A stretch of 32,000 nucleotides of DNA from Moraxella nasovis (GTDB lineage Bacteria > Pseudomonadota > Gammaproteobacteria > Pseudomonadales > Moraxellaceae): positions 810,001-842,000 of the forward strand of contig NZ_CP089976.1 in the NCBI RefSeq assembly GCF_022701215.1. Reading direction: 5' to 3'. The position numbers and the translations under genes were made by a program. This document shows, piece after piece, positions 26,438-31,870 of this stretch. The notes under the pieces were generated by a model. It was not told where the DNA came from. It worked only from the letters and a program-made list of their open reading frames with translations, and ran no database searches. Each line of letters opens with the position of its first letter. The first letter of the stretch is position 1.

Positions 26438-28282
26438 TTAAGCGTCTTTTTTACGACTAAAACGCTTACGCTCATTTTCGGTCAAATAACGCTTACGAAT
26501 ACGAATTGATTTTGGCGTAACTTCCACAAGCTCATCATCTTCGATAAACTCAAGTGCCTGTTCTAGCGTGTACTCAACAGCAGGTGTTAGCGTCAAGGCT
26601 TCATCCGTACCAGAAGCGCGCACGTTGGTCAGCTGCTTACCTTTAGTTGGATTCACCACCATGTCATCAGAGCGAGAATTAATACCGATAATCATGCCTT
26701 CATACACTTCAAGCTGTGGTTTAGCAAACAGACGTCCACGGTCTTGCAACGTAAATAAGGCATATGCCAAGCACGTACCATTGACCATAGAAATCAACAC
26801 ACCATTTTGGCGACCAGCCACTGTACCGCTTTTAGCTTCGCCATAATGAGAAAAACTTGACGTCATAATACCTGTGCCTGATGTCATCGTTAAAAACTCT
26901 GAACGAAAGCCAATCAAACCACGTGACGGTACAACCGCTTCAATACGGATGCGTCCTTTTCCATCGACTTCCATATTGGTCAGCTCACCTTTACGGTTGC
27001 CCATTTGTTCCATAACTGCACCTTGGTGCTGTTCTTCAACATCAAAAGTTACGTTCTCGTAAGGCTCGCACATCTTACCATCAATTTCTTTCATGATAAC
27101 TTGTGGGCGAGATACGCCAAGCTCAAAGCCTTCACGACGCATATTTTCAATCAAAACAGATAAATGCAACTCGCCACGACCAGACACTTTAAATTTCTCT
27201 GGACTATCAGTGTCTTCCACACGTAAGGCAACGTTATGAATAAGCTCACGATCAAGACGTTCACGAATATTACGAGAAGTAACAAACTTACCTTCTTTAC
27301 CAGCGAATGGTGAATCATTCACTTGAAAGGTCATAGACACGGTTGGCTCATCTACCGACAGTGCAGGCAGGGCCTCTACTACTTTAGGATCACAGATAGT
27401 GTCTGAAATATTTAGCCCATCAATCCCTGTGATACACACGATATCACCTGCGTGAGCTTCTTCGACATCGACACGCTCAAGTCCGTGATAACCCATGATT
27501 TTTAAGATTCGTCCGTTGCGAGTTTTACCTTCTTTATCAATCACGGTGACAGGCGTGTTTGTCTTAACAGAACCACGCTGAATACGCCCAATACCAATAA
27601 CACCCACAAAGCTGTTATAGTCAAGGCTTGAGATTTGCATTTGGAACGGACCATCTACATCCACCTTCGGCGGCTCAACCACATCAACAATGGTCTCAAA
27701 TAATGGGGTCATGTCAGTTGCAAGATTATCTGGCTCACGTCCTGCAATGCCGTTCATACCTGAAGCATATACGATTGGAAAGTCAAGCTGCTCATCGGTT
27801 GCACCTAGATTATCAAACAGATCAAAAACTTGATCCATTACCCAATCAGGGCGAGCAGATGGCTTATCAATTTTATTTAAAATAACAATCGGCTTAAGTC
27901 CACGAGCAAAAGCTTTTTGGGTAACAAAGCGAGTTTGTGGCATTGGGCCTTCTTGAGAGTCAACAAGCAGTAGTACACAGTCCACCATACTCATCACACG
28001 TTCCACTTCACCACCAAAGTCAGCGTGTCCTGGGGTGTCCACGATATTAATGCGATAGGTAGTGTCAGTGCGTTTGTCGAGCCATTTGATTGATGTGTTT
28101 TTGGCTAAAATGGTGATACCACGCTCGCTTTCTAAAGCATTAGAATCCATCACACGCTCAATCTCGCCTGCACGCTCACCCAATGCACCAGATTGTTGTA
28201 ATAACTTATCAACAAGCGTGGTTTTGCCATGGTCAACGTGAGCTATAATGGCGATATTTCTTAACTGTTTGATATTATTCAT
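26438..28282 (-). CDS. typA: Translational GTPase TypA/BipA
   Basis: [32 protein letters not shown] and NKID G-motifs. EF-G-like domain order without domain IV. 614 aa. Confidence 0.95.
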
Positions 28283-28396
28283 GTTTTTACCTAAAAATTT
28301 TGGTTGATTATTTTTTTATGTACACTATTGTGTACACATAAGTTCATAACTTAATAACTTGATGTCGCATTATACAGATAACGCAACAAAAAAGCT

Positions 28397-28507
28397 AAAA
28401 AAATGAAAATAATGCTTGATTATCTAATTATAATTAGATATAATAAGCACATATACAGAGCAAAAGCTCGACAATCAACCCAAAGCTACAGGAGCTTACA
28501 AATGAAA
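28397..28507 (+). repeat. 111-bp direct repeat, copy A (promoter + operator + 5'UTR + RBS + first two codons)
   Basis: Letter-by-letter identical to 29281-29391: AAAAAAATGAAAATAATGCTTGATTATCTAATTATAATTAGATATAATAAGCACATATACAGAGCAAAAGCTCGACAATCAACCCAAAGCTACAGGAGCTTACAAATGAAA. Confidence 0.95.
28416..28444 (+). promoter_or_regulatory. Strong sigma70-type promoter A with an embedded 20-bp palindromic operator
   Basis: TTGATT (28416-28421), 17-nt spacer, perfect TATAAT (28439-28444). The palindrome TATCTAATT-AT-AATTAGATA (28421-28440) spans the whole spacer and touches both hexamers. Confidence 0.7.
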
Positions 28508-28786
28508 GTAGTACATATTGATAAATTCGGATTTGGTGATTTTTTTCATGACAACAAAATGAGCGGAGGTACTGCAAAAAACGGTACTCGATATGCAGAA
28601 GTTGTTGTTAATTCTGAAATTTACCACACTTTAAAAAACGGCTTGACAATCATCGGTACTCATAAAAAAAATGGTAGTACTAGAACGTATGAGTTTAACG
28701 GTGAACACGGCAGGGAATTTTACAACTATCACGCTCAGCTTGTTGTAAGATTTTATGGAAAAATGACAGACAAAAAATTAGCTTAA
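28502..28786 (+). CDS. Small hypothetical protein (94 aa), first gene of cassette A; anti-CRISPR/anti-defence candidate
   Basis: AGGAG (28490-28494) lies 7 nt before the ATG at 28502. The longer ORF-track version starts upstream of the -35 element and is unlikely. No family recognised. Confidence 0.65.
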   Translation: MKVVHIDKFGFGDFFHDNKMSGGTAKNGTRYAEVVVNSEIYHTLKNGLTIIGTHKKNGSTRTYEFNGEHGREFYNYHAQLVVRFYGKMTDKKLA

Positions 28787-28833
28787 TTGCGATTTTTGAA
28801 AAACCCAAAAAAAAAAAATTTTCTAGGTCATGT

Positions 28834-29106
28834 ATGAACAATAACTATGTATTCAATCGTTTATTAACAACGCTCAATTTACACCGTAACCACGACATGA
28901 CCGCCAAAATTTTTAAGCTTGGTGGCACGCACTCTGAAATAACAAAGTCGCTAGTTAAGTCATGGCGTATCAGCGATGAACAAAACAGGCTGTATCGCCC
29001 CATGCTAGACAAGACACTAATATCGTTTTTTGACGGCTTACAACAAGCAAGCAAAGATGAGTTGATAGATATTAATTGCGATATTGTTATAAGAATAAAG
29101 GAGTAA
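28834..29106 (+). CDS. DUF1456 (YehS-like) single-domain protein, 90 aa
   Basis: The pattern N-x-[VI]-[FL]..L...L......DM...IFKLGG......I..W....E......P...L..FFDGL follows the repeat unit of E. coli YehS as I recall it. Confidence 0.55.
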   Translation: MNNNYVFNRLLTTLNLHRNHDMTAKIFKLGGTHSEITKSLVKSWRISDEQNRLYRPMLDKTLISFFDGLQQASKDELIDINCDIVIRIKE

Positions 29107-29111
29107 AAAAA

Positions 29112-29303
29112 ATGGCAAACACTACCAAAGCTCAAGCAAGAGCAGTTAAGCAATATCAACAGACTAGCGAAAGTTGGACTGTACGCACAAAAGACGAACA
29201 AAAGATGCAAATGCTTAAACAAGCAAAAGCAACGGGCAATTTGTCAAAAATATTTTTTGAATTTTTAGAAGAATATTTTAAAAAAAATGAAAATAATGCT
29301 TGA
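29112..29303 (+). CDS. Ribbon-helix-helix (CopG/Arc-like) DNA-binding protein, 63 aa; candidate repressor of the duplicated promoters
   Basis: AAGGAG (29098-29103) lies 8 nt before the ATG at 29112. Beta-strand-like SWTVRTKDEQ is followed by two helices (KMQMLKQAKATG, NLSKIFFEFLEEYF), the classic RHH layout. Confidence 0.6.
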   Translation: MANTTKAQARAVKQYQQTSESWTVRTKDEQKMQMLKQAKATGNLSKIFFEFLEEYFKKNENNA

Positions 29304-29391
29304 TTATCTAATTATAATTAGATATAATAAGCACATATACAGAGCAAAAGCTCGACAATCAACCCAAAGCTACAGGAGCTTACAAATGAAA
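29281..29391 (+). repeat. 111-bp direct repeat, copy B
   Basis: Identical to 28397-28507, offset 884 bp. Its first 23 nt also encode the C-terminus and stop codon of the RHH gene. Confidence 0.95.
29300..29328 (+). promoter_or_regulatory. Promoter B, identical to promoter A, with the same palindromic operator (29305-29324)
   Basis: Same sequence as promoter A. The TGA stop of the upstream RHH gene (29301-29303) lies inside the -35 hexamer. Confidence 0.7.
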
Positions 29392-29754
29392 AAATCTGAA
29401 ATGAAAGCAATCAAAGAATGTCGTGAGAATATCATCGGCTTTCTACACCCCAATGAAATGCAAACAATCAACGCGATTTTGGGGATTGATGTTGATAAGC
29501 TAGATTTTTATACTGTTTGTGATTTAACTATCAAAAATTATGCAGATAAGAAAATCACAAATAAAAAAGCAAGTGAAGTGTTTGACATTCTTTCACAAGC
29601 AAATAAGCAATTTAAAATAGAGCGTTATCGCTATGACAAGTCTACAAAGACAATCTATGAATTTGATGAAGAACACGATGCGTATTTATTCTTAGAAAAT
29701 AGCGGACACGGAAGATATGTTCACTTAGTTACAGTTAACGGTATGTATATCTAG
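29386..29754 (+). CDS. Small hypothetical protein (122 aa), sole gene of cassette B; anti-CRISPR candidate
   Basis: Same AGGAG-7nt-ATG as cassette A and followed by a terminator. Acidic/basic mixed small protein with no enzymatic motifs. Size is in the range of the Moraxella AcrIF13/AcrIF14 proteins (from memory). Confidence 0.65.
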   Translation: MKKSEMKAIKECRENIIGFLHPNEMQTINAILGIDVDKLDFYTVCDLTIKNYADKKITNKKASEVFDILSQANKQFKIERYRYDKSTKTIYEFDEEHDAYLFLENSGHGRYVHLVTVNGMYI

Positions 29755-29803
29755 TGTTGATTTTCTAGATTATAAAATACACATAAGACTTAGATTTTTA
29801 AAG

Positions 29804-29827
29804 AAAACCGCCCACGCTGGCGGTTTT
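29804..29827 (+). terminator. Intrinsic terminator after the cassette B gene
   Basis: AAAACCGCC-cacgct-GGCGGTTTT hairpin 50 nt after the stop codon. Confidence 0.6.
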
Positions 29828-29910
29828 CAAGACTAAAACAAGATTACGAATATCACTCAATGAACTATAAAATCTTGAACTAAAAGTAAAAGTATTTGAT
29901 GAAATTAAAC

Positions 29911-29939
29911 TTGACAAATCAAATTTATTTTAATAAGAT
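29911..29939 (+). promoter_or_regulatory. Promoter of the CRISPR-repeat-mimic RNA
   Basis: Perfect -35 TTGACA (29911-29916), 17-nt spacer, TAAGAT (29934-29939). The predicted transcription start is about 7-8 nt before the first repeat. Confidence 0.55.
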
Positions 29940-29953
29940 AGTTCATGTAGTTA

Positions 29954-30127
29954 TTACGCCACTGCAAAAAAGTGGCTTAGAAAGTTCTACAATTGTTAAA
30001 AGGGTTCACCACCGCTTAGGTGGCTTAGAAAATTGTATAATTTTAAAATATGTTTACCACCGCTTAGGTGGCTTAGAAAGTTATATGATTGTAAAAAAGG
30101 TTTACCACTGCAGAAGTGGCTTAGAAA
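29954..30127 (+). CRISPR. Orphan array of four type I-F-like CRISPR repeats (28 nt; first copy a degenerate 30 nt) separated by 20-nt mutually homologous linkers; candidate RNA anti-CRISPR or mini-array
   Basis: R1 29954-29983 TTACGCCACTGCAAAAAAGTGGCTTAGAAA. R2 30004-30031 GTTCACCACCGCTTAGGTGGCTTAGAAA. R3 30052-30079 GTTTACCACCGCTTAGGTGGCTTAGAAA. R4 30100-30127 GTTTACCACTGCAGAAGTGGCTTAGAAA. Same architecture as I-F repeats: GTTCA flank, 5-bp stem, 5-nt loop, CTTAGAAA handle. The stem covaries between copies. Confidence 0.6.
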
Positions 30128-30161
30128 ATTATATGATTGTAAATCAGTAATAACTACCAAT

Positions 30162-30184
30162 AAACCCCCAAACTTTGGGGGTTT
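30162..30184. terminator. Strong bidirectional terminator shared by the repeat RNA (+) and the endolysin gene (-)
   Basis: AAACCCCCAA-act-TTGGGGGTTT followed by ATTTTT. Lies 5 nt beyond the endolysin stop on the other strand. Confidence 0.8.
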
Positions 30185-30188
30185 ATTT

Positions 30189-30758
30189 TTACTTAAGCCC
30201 TACTAGATACGTTGTCCGACCGCCACGCTTAACAGCTGTTAGAAACTGACTTCGCTGGTCACCAGCATTTGACTTGTAGCCTAAATGTATCCATGTGCTA
30301 TTTTCGTCAGGGAATTCTAAAATAAGCTGGTCAAACTTTTTTAGCTTGTCTTTTAAAAAGTTAGCAATTTGTCGTGTTGTGCCAAATTCAGGACACTTAA
30401 AGTCAATTGCTCGCCCAAAAGTGTGTGCTGATGTATTAGACCCACCCACCGCACGATTGACATTGGGCGAACGATAACCGCTAGATATATGAATGGGTTT
30501 TCCAAGCAGGTCTCTGACAGGTTGCCACAGATTTACGCTACTATCTATCAAGTTTTGCAATACCCCAGCATCAGGGATATTATCAATGCCACGAGCTTTT
30601 GCGGTATTGCTGTGTAATAGCTCGTTTAAGCTGATGTTTTGCGTGATTTTAATCGTCTTGCCTACAGCTAAAGCGTGCTTTAATGCACGCTGTGACTGCA
30701 CCCCCCACACGCCGTCAGCAGGCGTGTTTATTTGTTCTTGAATGTGTTTGATGTTCAC
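30189..30758 (-). CDS. Phage endolysin, peptidase M15 family (zinc D-Ala-D-Ala carboxypeptidase-like, Peptidase_M15_3)
   Basis: SSGYRSPNVNRAVGGSNTSAHTFGRAIDF (H..D metal ligands) and the distal WIHLGY histidine. GTG start overlaps the upstream stop (GTGA). Confidence 0.8.
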   Translation of the reverse strand: MNIKHIQEQINTPADGVWGVQSQRALKHALAVGKTIKITQNISLNELLHSNTAKARGIDNIPDAGVLQNLIDSSVNLWQPVRDLLGKPIHISSGYRSPNVNRAVGGSNTSAHTFGRAIDFKCPEFGTTRQIANFLKDKLKKFDQLILEFPDENSTWIHLGYKSNAGDQRSQFLTAVKRGGRTTYLVGLK

Positions 30759-31870
30759 TCAAATCCCTCAACTTCTAAGGCGTCTGTGACTGCTGGTACT
30801 TCAACGAGTTTAATCACACTAAGGCGATTTTCAAGCATAGCTTTAGTAATGCCTTTTGTGATGGTTGTGATGTCTTCTGGCAAGATTTTAACCGCTGCAG
30901 CAGCCGTCAGTTTAGCTTGAGTTACCTTGTCATTTAAGGCGATAAGCTCATCAACGTCTTTTTGACTGATAATCTTATATTTGTCAATCTCTTGTCGCTT
31001 ATTGTATGCTATCTGCAAAGCTTGTTCAGCGGCTTTCACTCTAGTTTCAGTACTCTCAGGAATGCTGTCTAAGACAAGCCTTACTTCGTTTGCGTCTTCT
31101 TTTGCAGTATAATATTTTGAACTAAATAGACCAGCTGGCATATCATGTTTACCAGTTCTGTCTTTAAACTTAAAAACAAATTCATGTAAACCCTTACTAA
31201 ACGCATCGTCAAGATTAAGAAGAACCGCCCCATCAGGTGTAATGACAGTATCTTCATTAAAATTGATGGTTACGTCGCTGTGGTCATTTATAGCAATTAC
31301 CCGACCAATAAAATCTTTTAAGTTTACCTTAGGGGCTATAACGGGTTCTCCTTGATACGTAAGATGCAAATAAAACTGCAGAATACCATCATCACGCTTT
31401 TTGGCAGTGATATGCCAATCATCAGCTATTGGATAACTGGGCGTGCTTGTCTCATCTTTATGGTCTGAATGCTCCATCACTTCTGAATAATCACTATACC
31501 CATCATTATCGGTGTCTTTGTTATCAGGATTTGTGCCGTATTTTTCGTATTCATCATAATCTGTGATGCGGTCATTATCTGCATCTCTTTGTTTTTCGGT
31601 TAAAGCAACGGTTCTTAAAGCACGAGCCATTAATTTATCAAGCCCATCTAGGCGTGCCTTATTCTCACCATAATTTGCATCGATTTTTTCATTGATTTCA
31701 GCGATTTTTTTCTCAATGTCATCAATGCCTACCGTTTTATCGGTGCTTGTTGTTGTTTCGGTGTTGCTTGGCAACTTGTTAAGTTTATTATCAATCTTAG
31801 TCAAAAGCTCTTTAATCTCTATGATGTGTGTTGTGATAAGCTGTAATACGCTAGAAATGGTTGGTTTCAT
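30755..31870 (-). CDS. Phage late protein with N-terminal coiled coil and thrombospondin type-3-like Ca-binding repeats
   Basis: DADNDRITDYDE...NPDNKDTDNDGYSDYSE matches the DxDxDG.xDxxE type. AGGAG lies 8 nt before the ATG at 31870. Translationally coupled to the endolysin gene. Confidence 0.6.
   Translation of the reverse strand: MKPTISSVLQLITTHIIEIKELLTKIDNKLNKLPSNTETTTSTDKTVGIDDIEKKIAEINEKIDANYGENKARLDGLDKLMARALRTVALTEKQRDADNDRITDYDEYEKYGTNPDNKDTDNDGYSDYSEVMEHSDHKDETSTPSYPIADDWHITAKKRDDGILQFYLHLTYQGEPVIAPKVNLKDFIGRVIAINDHSDVTINFNEDTVITPDGAVLLNLDDAFSKGLHEFVFKFKDRTGKHDMPAGLFSSKYYTAKEDANEVRLVLDSIPESTETRVKAAEQALQIAYNKRQEIDKYKIISQKDVDELIALNDKVTQAKLTAAAAVKILPEDITTITKGITKAMLENRLSVIKLVEVPAVTDALEVEGFE

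Follow-up and report, generated by a model that had tools for sequence, protein, structure and literature searches.

At the end of a prophage in the chromosome of Moraxella nasovis, next to the core gene typA, we identified what is very probably a two-operon anti-CRISPR island of the acr-aca type (acr, anti-CRISPR; aca, anti-CRISPR-associated; CRISPR, short palindromic repeats that are clustered and regularly interspaced). The four genes concerned, annotated as LU293_04100 to LU293_04115, lie in a 32-kb window (the whole stretch of DNA that was analyzed) and encode proteins of 94, 90, 63, and 122 amino acids (aa), referred to here as g94, the DUF1456 protein, g63, and g122; the first three form operon 1, and g122 forms operon 2 (Table 1). 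We favor the acr-aca reading because of a combination of features: g122 is a homologue of AcrIF14, one operator is duplicated in front of both operons, a constant small protein is accompanied by variable cargo, that small protein and the operator covary, the layout is also that of the phage Mcat5 locus, the repressor Aca14 provides a precedent for the regulatory logic, and mimics of type I-F CRISPR repeats recur among related loci. The locus has traits by which acr-aca loci are recognized, namely a member of a validated Acr family encoded on a mobile element and, 3' of variable upstream cargo, a conserved gene for a small, predicted regulator. The AcrIF14 family and the acr-aca layout are already known; what is new here is a predicted regulator family with a defined operator, its optional DUF1456 partner, and a linked type I-F mini-array.

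A first-pass annotation, made from the sequence of this DNA without database searches, had described acr-aca-like anti-defense operons at a prophage end, and that description is well supported. The four small genes that it placed between typA and a phage lysis gene have the coordinates and sizes it gave them. The strong repressible promoters that it assigned to them correspond to real sequence features, a 111-nucleotide (nt) repeat with a TTGATT-17-TATAAT promoter and a palindrome, from which strength and repressibility are predicted, and the adjacent CRISPR-repeat mimic resolves into three Rfam CRISPR-DR4 units. It had also noted no enzymatic motif, in agreement with our searches of Pfam, NCBIfam, PHROGs, and PADLOC, in which none of the four proteins matched an enzymatic or defense-system family.

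An AcrIF14 homologue in operon 2

The 122-aa protein had been listed as an orphan, alongside an unverified impression that it resembled AcrIF14. The impression was right and the orphan label was not: judged by its sequence, g122 is clearly a full-length member of the AcrIF14 family, and the two proteins align end to end. Specifically, a phmmer search of PDB sequences aligned query residues 1-121 with residues 1-123 of the AcrIF14 chain (PDB 7ecv, 7du0, and 7jzz; E 3.7e-28), and tblastn gave 42.7% identity to AcrIF14 of phage Mcat5 at 100% query coverage. The genes of Mcat5, Mcat7, and Mcat8 were all 40-43% identical to g122 over its full length, with weaker relatives in Acinetobacter phages. 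The annotation of LU293_04115 can be changed from "hypothetical protein" to AcrIF14 family.

In AcrIF14, the C-terminal domain contacts Cas7.4f, Cas7.6f, and the CRISPR RNA (crRNA) and target hybridization is blocked, the basic N-terminal domain causes non-specific DNA binding, and mutagenesis has defined the contact residues R84, Y89/E91, and F104/Y105, plus Y93 (PMC8464039). Three of these (R84, Y93, and F104) are kept in g122, while Y89 and E91 are each changed to T and Y105 is changed to L. From the homology, we infer the activity and the host range of g122.

A duplicated promoter-operator cassette

Both operons are preceded by a copy of an exact 111-nt direct repeat, one before g94 and the other before g122, and the TTGATT-17-TATAAT promoter in each copy matches 10 of 12 consensus positions. 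The spacer between the -35 and -10 boxes is filled by a perfect 20-nt palindrome, TATCTAATTATAATTAGATA, which abuts the -10 box and which we take as the operator. Its core, TCTAAT-N4-ATTAGA, occurs at two sites in the 32 kb, one in each cassette, against a chance expectation of 0.12, and a count of two was reached in 0 of 100 shuffles. The first copy retains codons left over from a g63-type gene, which indicates that promoter P1 is a recent copy of a cassette consisting of the 3' end of the aca gene plus promoter P2. The reading frame of g94 is joined directly to the ATGAAA of this cassette.

The 5' untranslated regions (UTRs) start with ACACAT followed by a hairpin, both in the window (28458-28469) and in the loci labeled L001 (1893-1920), L005 (1941-1975), and L004 (2225-2246 and 3944-3965). 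Although their operators differ, L001, L005, and Mcat5 have CAUCAAGA...UCUUGAU as the hairpin of their cassettes; in the window, the hairpin is GAGCaaaaGCUC. It may act as a stabilizing or regulatory RNA element.

A constant small protein and variable cargo in related phage loci

Contigs carrying homologues of g94, g63, and DUF1456 led to 15 related loci (L001-L003 and L005-L016), found on contigs of phage character, which also encode terminase, portal, and replication functions. A single layout is common to the 13 metagenomic or viral loci that have a g63-type protein: TCTAAT-N4-ATTAGA lies in a promoter, which is followed by a first gene, zero to two extra genes, usually a DUF1456 gene, a g63 homologue (57-63 aa), a second promoter with the same operator, and an operon-2 gene. 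In these 13 loci, the operator lies at the same position between the -35 and -10 boxes, and the second operator comes directly after the stop codon of the small-protein gene wherever the contig reaches that far. The g63 homologue is the sole gene kept in all 13 related loci that cover its position.

The remaining genes vary around this constant element. The first gene is modular, with a shared N-terminal module of about 38 aa (MTKSELFKAAHKLAK..GDNY..TF..CLK; phrog_12732) followed by one of at least four different C-terminal domains, which are either g94-like or unrelated versions of 110, 111, 125, and 128 aa. The module was located at 135-250 in L001, 283-400 in L002, and 1317-1430 in L005, and it is also found in the first genes of L006-L011. 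The operon-2 gene is of four kinds, encoding proteins of 87 aa (at least eight loci), 101 aa, or 114 aa or, in the window, the AcrIF14 homologue, and the gene before the small protein encodes DUF1456 or a protein of 131 or 128 aa. DUF1456 is missing from two loci, L005 and L010, in which the small protein and both operators are retained. In L011 and L012, a 65%-identical DUF1456 protein is followed by a different small protein of 60 aa, and the palindrome is also different (TATAGTG-N2-CACTATA); in L011, the DUF1456 and 60-aa genes overlap by 8 nt. Farther along in L011 (3566-3730), after the small-protein gene, a strong promoter-like site (TTGACA-18-TAATAT) that has a palindrome of its own, AGCTCAATGAGCT, precedes some 130 nt devoid of open reading frames and ending in a terminator hairpin; together, they could constitute a small RNA gene.

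The small protein g63 as a candidate repressor

We consider g63 a likely Aca-type repressor of both operons, with DNA binding predicted, because the center of the operator tracks the subtype of the small protein and not that of DUF1456. The g63 family comprises two subtypes, one with the motif ...QQ(S/T)SESWTVRT... (window, L002, and L006-L009) and the other with ...VAQTEQWQVRT... (L001, L005, L010, and L013-L016). The operator center is always TATA with the SESWTVRT subtype and always ACGT, CCGT, or ACGG with the TEQWQVRT subtype, a correspondence that is obeyed by both promoters of every locus (13 of 13) and that comes from two clades. The DUF1456 subtype does not follow this split: the DUF1456 protein of the window is 82-88% identical to those of loci with a CG center, whereas the operator center of the window is TATA. 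In its position, its conservation, and its covariation with the operator, g63 behaves as an Aca protein would.

The label that g63 had received in the first-pass annotation, that of a ribbon-helix-helix (RHH) protein, did not hold up. None of six g63-family members matched RHH or helix-turn-helix (HTH) models in Pfam at E<=10, while Aca14, an RHH repressor, scored 23.3 bits on RHH_1. Comparison of g63 with Aca14 itself gave no BLASTP alignment and an hhalign probability of 1% (E 0.056 over 12 columns), and a profile search of the PDB returned nothing relevant and no RHH match. The AlphaFold2 (AF2) model of the g63 monomer, built from the single sequence, consists of two helices (6-41 and 44-62) with no strand, at a predicted local distance difference test (pLDDT) score of 73.5, and found no fold match. 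By eye, g63 can be read as having an RHH-like layout, with an N-terminal extension, SWTVRT, a helix, G-N-L-S, and a second helix, in which case the subtype-specific residues would, purely by inference, sit in the would-be ribbon. Given that Pfam, the PDB profile search, the Aca14 comparison, and the AF2 model are all without an RHH signal, we regard g63 as an RHH protein as unproven.

Searches for more distant relatives returned little. A word-index search of a large protein database found g63 itself only, a full HMMER search of 1.84 billion representatives gave six matches, all from the same small family or chimeras, and a scan of 185,579 species genomes turned up no g63 homologue; further, neither g63 nor DUF1456 had a tblastn match in phages or PLSDB plasmids. 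BLASTP was negative between g63 and the 66-aa protein of Mcat5 (hhalign E 0.58). A weak chain does run from the g63 family to the 60-aa protein of L011 (hhalign E 0.037) and from there to the Mcat5 66-aa protein (BLASTP E 2e-5), with links too weak for us to claim homology through them, and deepening the Aca14, Mcat5 66-aa, and L011 60-aa profiles with IMG/VR sequences added almost no diversity. In two proteins, P0010 and P0013, the N-terminal 38-45 residues of the g63 family are fused to the C-terminal ends of neighbors (the 87-aa operon-2 protein; a 163-aa protein), and these chimeras point to natural deletions and rearrangements at this locus.

The cargo of operon 1

Relatives of g94 fall into three homologous clusters among 5.8 billion proteins, at 55-59% identity, and g94 is the counterpart of the C-terminal domain in a family of 133-134 aa, lacking the N-terminal module. 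Its AF2 model, built on a 4-sequence alignment, has a mixed alpha/beta fold (pLDDT 91.7; predicted template modeling [pTM] score 0.80), with no structural neighbor in the PDB (best E 0.099, template modeling [TM] score at most 0.44) or in BFVD. For the next gene, the DUF1456 label of the first-pass annotation stands: its product matches PF07308 at 30.4 bits against a gathering score of 27 (E 4.7e-07, model positions 1-64 of 68), and the NCBI name is also DUF1456 family protein. A DUF1456 gene lies directly 5' of the small-protein gene in the window and in 12 of 14 related loci (L001, L002, L006-L009, and L011-L016), the two without it being L005 and L010. DUF1456 is a frequent but optional partner; where present, it is immediately upstream of the gene for the small regulator.

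By position, g94 and DUF1456 hold the slots that acrIF13 and acrVA2, both validated Acrs, hold in Mcat5, and by this analogy they are most likely further anti-defense proteins. DUF1456 may instead be an accessory or co-regulator to g63, a role that we leave open because of its fixed position directly before the regulator and its higher conservation. Our literature search found no paper linking DUF1456 with anti-CRISPR.

A type I-F repeat mini-array beside operon 2

Three 28-nt units of the mini-array that follows g122 scored 34.9, 31.6, and 28.9 bits against Rfam CRISPR-DR4, for which the gathering score is 35. The array has a period of 48 nt, with 20 nt after each repeat; three of these 20-nt stretches lie between repeats (pseudo-spacers), and the fourth trails the last repeat. 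A single loop nucleotide separates these repeats from the genuine I-F repeats found in 60-nt-period arrays of Psychrobacter and Moraxella, and the RNA folds into four hairpins (z = -5.6). The four 20-nt stretches resemble one another (RTTNTAYRATTGTAAA) and contain the -10-like hexamers TATAAT and TATGAT, which fits a promoter-targeting array of the Cracr type (compared below). A search for pseudo-spacer targets (a CC protospacer-adjacent motif plus seed; cas or creT promoters) yielded nothing beyond chance-level matches in 1.6 Mb of fetched loci, among which the M. nasovis CRISPR-Cas locus was not included.

Comparable repeat mimics occur in the related loci, where an Rfam scan at E<=0.1 missed the diverged repeats and a stem-aware scan found them. 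Specifically, L005 (2318-2400, - strand), L006, L007, L008, and L010 have pairs of I-F repeat-like units just past operon 2, on the opposite strand; in L011 and L012, a solitary unit preceded by TATAAT stands within the operon, between a 62-aa gene and DUF1456 (L011 3050-3077 and L012 1078-1105, + strand). The mini-array probably adds an RNA-based anti-CRISPR to the protein encoded beside it.

Proposed mechanism and competing explanations

Upon phage entry or induction, the two identical strong sigma-70 promoters would fire, with operon 1 giving rise to g94, DUF1456, and g63, and operon 2 to the AcrIF14 homologue. By homology, the C-terminal domain of the latter would bind Cas7f of the type I-F Csy complex and block hybridization of the crRNA to target DNA. 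As g63 accumulates, it would probably dimerize, bind TCTAAT-N4-ATTAGA at P1 and P2, and shut both operons, following the same logic as Aca14. In the meantime, g94 and DUF1456 would serve as cargo, most likely in anti-defense, unless DUF1456 instead aids the regulator, and the separately promoted I-F mini-array would probably contribute an RNA anti-CRISPR.

Several observations weigh against such an island. Three of the six AcrIF14 contact residues differ in g122, both of the crRNA-contacting ones (Y89 and E91) among them. The sequence of g94 matches no solved Acr, the DUF1456 protein has no solved relative and no similarity to a known Acr, and the roles proposed for both are assigned from position alone. 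The g63 family lacks a recognizable DNA-binding domain in Pfam, the confidence of its AF2 model is only moderate, and its covariation with the operator, drawn from two clades, may amount to a single evolutionary event. Finally, the 32-kb window contains no cas genes that would indicate the CRISPR-Cas type of the host.

The most serious rival concerns the cargo: g94, DUF1456, or both may be non-Acr moron genes (for superinfection exclusion, inhibition of other defenses, or host modulation) that ride in an Aca-regulated early operon beside a true acr gene. Such passengers have precedent, in that Aca-controlled operons often carry non-Acr anti-defense genes, including restriction-modification systems, Csx20, and helicases (bioRxiv 10.64898/2026.07.27.740549), and both proteins resemble no known Acr; DUF1456, moreover, is fixed in position and, with 38-88% identity among loci, far better conserved than Acr cargo typically is. 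However, the equivalent slots of Mcat5 are occupied by two validated Acrs, I-F repeat mimics recur beside the locus family, and the turnover of first-gene domains is typical of arms-race cargo, so that we regard non-Acr cargo as possible, if somewhat unlikely. We find it quite improbable that the regulatory roles are exchanged, with DUF1456 binding the operator, alone or as a co-repressor with g63, and g63 being the accessory. L005 and L010 retain both operators and the small protein without any DUF1456, the operator center follows the subtype of the small protein and not that of DUF1456, and the 65%-identical DUF1456 of L011 is paired with a different palindrome, although the regular placement of DUF1456 before the small-protein gene (12 of 14 related loci and the window), the 8-nt gene overlap in L011, which suggests translational coupling, and the lack of a recognizable DNA-binding domain in g63 would all suit such an exchange.

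The first-pass annotation had also raised a toxin-antitoxin module with an RHH antitoxin. Under such a reading, g63 would act as an antitoxin of the RHH type that represses its own operon, with the toxin being DUF1456 or g94. A small protein encoded among tightly packed genes, in an operon with a palindromic operator, would be expected of such a module. Yet the proposal is poorly supported and, in our view, very improbable: no toxin or antitoxin family was found in Pfam, NCBIfam, or PADLOC, the gene preceding g63 varies among loci and leaves no fixed pair, the RHH assignment of g63 is unsupported, and the same operator controls a second operon, one that encodes an AcrIF14 homologue.

Implications

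Known Acr families have come to light largely because their genes were associated with Aca or Acr genes already known (guilt by association). AcrIF13, AcrIF14, AcrVA1-3, and AcrIC1 stem from Moraxella loci, in which, to our knowledge, no Aca had been named before. A g63-type gene, or TCTAAT-N4-ATTAGA inside a promoter, offers a new search handle for Acr genes, and the loci assembled here put forward as potential Acrs about 10 cargo families not yet characterized: g94 with its domain variants, plus the proteins of 87, 101, 110, 114, 131, and 171 aa. DUF1456, a domain without known function, gains a testable context, and the pairing of an AcrIF14-type protein with a short-spacer I-F repeat array is relevant to the ways in which anti-CRISPRs of the protein and RNA kinds are combined.

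Within the acr-aca island, a more far-reaching combination can be put forward, rather doubtfully as a whole: that the 57-63-aa proteins form a new Aca family that reads TCTAAT-N4-ATTAGA without an HTH or RHH signature, that DUF1456 here obtains its first functional context, and that three further points hold as well. If so, g94 would be the free-standing effector domain of modular inhibitors of type I-F (or other) systems that elsewhere carry a 38-aa N-terminal adaptor; the single-domain DUF1456 would be a broadly conserved anti-defense protein or a co-factor that tunes Aca repression; and the AcrIF14 homologue together with a short-spacer Cracr-type array would be a second protein-RNA anti-CRISPR partnership, AcrIF24 being the only case reported to date.

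Setting of the locus

Positions 1-28282 of the window hold core genes (purL, gltS, a hybrid sensor kinase, a DEAD helicase, relA, mutM, mscL, and typA), and the convergent M15 endolysin marks the prophage side of the locus. At the DNA level, the whole locus showed no similarity to GenBank phages. A 371-aa protein encoded upstream of the endolysin (30755-31870, - strand), which combines bacterial TSP3 repeats with a GA-like domain at its C terminus, probably belongs to the phage tail or takes part in host recognition. In the 47 nt that separate g94 from DUF1456, 12 A residues stand in a row (28807-28818); the tract could be prone to slippage or mark a recombination seam. The interval from typA to the locus contains a near-perfect palindrome, TTATGTACACTATTGTGTACACATAAG (28316-28342), and a direct copy of it, 70% similar and ending in ACACATAAG, lies just 3' of g122 (29761-29787); the pair could be a regulator site or a remnant of attachment or recombination.

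Table 1. Features of the M. nasovis locus, in window coordinates
Feature	Position	Strand	Description
typA	26438-28282	-	Core-gene side of the locus
Cassette copy 1	28397-28507	+	Last 7 codons of a g63-type gene (remnant), -35/-10, operator, 5' UTR with ribosome-binding site AGGAG, ATGAAA
Promoter P1	28416-28444	+	TTGATT-17-TATAAT; operator TATCTAATTATAATTAGATA at 28421-28440
g94	28502-28786	+	94 aa; cargo protein, candidate Acr or anti-defense protein
DUF1456 protein	28834-29106	+	90 aa; single domain, 5' of g63
g63	29112-29303	+	63 aa; putative Aca-type repressor of both promoters
Cassette copy 2	29281-29391	+	Overlaps the 3' end of g63 (last seven codons)
Promoter P2	29300-29328	+	Operator at 29305-29324
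g122	29386-29754	+	122 aa; AcrIF14 homologue, predicted inhibitor of the type I-F Csy complex
Terminator-like hairpin	29803-29828	+	GAAAACCGCC...GGCGGTTTTC; 3' of g122, RNA fold with a 10-bp stem
Promoter-like sequence	29911-29939	+	TTGACA-17-TAAGAT; 5' of the mini-array
Type I-F CRISPR-repeat mini-array (Racr/Cracr-like)	29956-30147 (repeats 29956-30127)	+	One degenerate and three good 28-nt repeats
Bidirectional terminator	30159-30187	.	Common to the mini-array and the convergent endolysin gene
M15-peptidase endolysin	30189-30758	-	Convergent; Pfam Peptidase_M15_3 E 8e-20, PHROG endolysin E 5e-56

Comparison with known systems

The locus of phage Mcat5 (KR093629) consists, in order, of a 112-nt cassette, acrIF13 (PDB E 2e-76), acrVA2 (E 7e-127), the gene for a 66-aa protein, a further cassette, acrIF14, and a convergent M15 endolysin gene; the two cassette copies are 96% identical to each other, and the endolysin is 59% identical to that of the window. 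Both loci have two operons and a duplicated cassette of about 111 nt that carries the 3' end of a small-protein gene and a palindrome between the -35 and -10 boxes. They also have the flank of the -35 box in common (AATGCTTG / AATAATGCTTG), and in each, a 63-66-aa protein ends operon 1, while an acrIF14-type gene constitutes operon 2. They differ in the palindrome and in the small protein; further, g94 and DUF1456 replace acrIF13 and acrVA2 in the window, which adds the I-F repeat mini-array. At the level of the protein, g122 aligns with AcrIF14 of Mcat5 (AKI27193.1; PDB 7DU0, 7ECV, and 7JZZ) across two domains, the helical one at the N terminus and the Csy-binding one at the C terminus (122 versus 124 aa), and its gene holds the same genomic position, the last before the convergent M15 endolysin. 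In contrast to the Mcat5 protein, g122 has a 2-residue deletion in the N-terminal domain, the crRNA-stacking Y89 and its partner E91 are both replaced by Thr, and Y105 is replaced by Leu.

Escherichia coli YehS is a chromosomal protein with two DUF1456 repeats. The 90-aa protein described here belongs with that family, in that it matches the domain model (PF07308) above the gathering score, and differs from YehS in having a single domain and in being encoded inside a phage anti-defense operon.

With respect to regulation, Aca14 of Pasteurella multocida is a 66-aa RHH protein that, in electrophoretic mobility shift and reporter assays, represses its own and the next anti-defense operon via near-identical inverted repeats (bioRxiv 10.64898/2026.07.27.740549). 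Similarly, g63, at about 65 aa, is encoded by the last gene of a putative anti-defense operon, and the same inverted repeat, AT-rich as for Aca14, stands in its own promoter and in that of the next operon, which encodes the predicted Acr. Unlike Aca14, g63 is without an RHH match, and the two proteins have no detectable sequence similarity; their operators also differ, being TGTATATGTAAGCATATACA for Aca14 and TCTAAT-N4-ATTAGA in the window, where binding by g63 is predicted only.

Two kinds of RNA element bear comparison with the mini-array: Racr, solitary repeat units adjoining acr genes (PMC10651486), and Cracr, short-spacer viral I-F arrays tied to acrIF24 (bioRxiv 10.1101/2024.10.29.618823). 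What sets a Cracr apart from a Racr is a pseudo-spacer with a partial match to a cas or creT promoter beside a protospacer-adjacent motif. Like both, the mini-array consists of I-F repeat mimics on a prophage, outside a CRISPR-Cas locus and beside an acr gene, and, like CracrIF RNAs, it has short pseudo-spacers of 20 nt. Unlike the published link to acrIF24, it adjoins a homologue of acrIF14.

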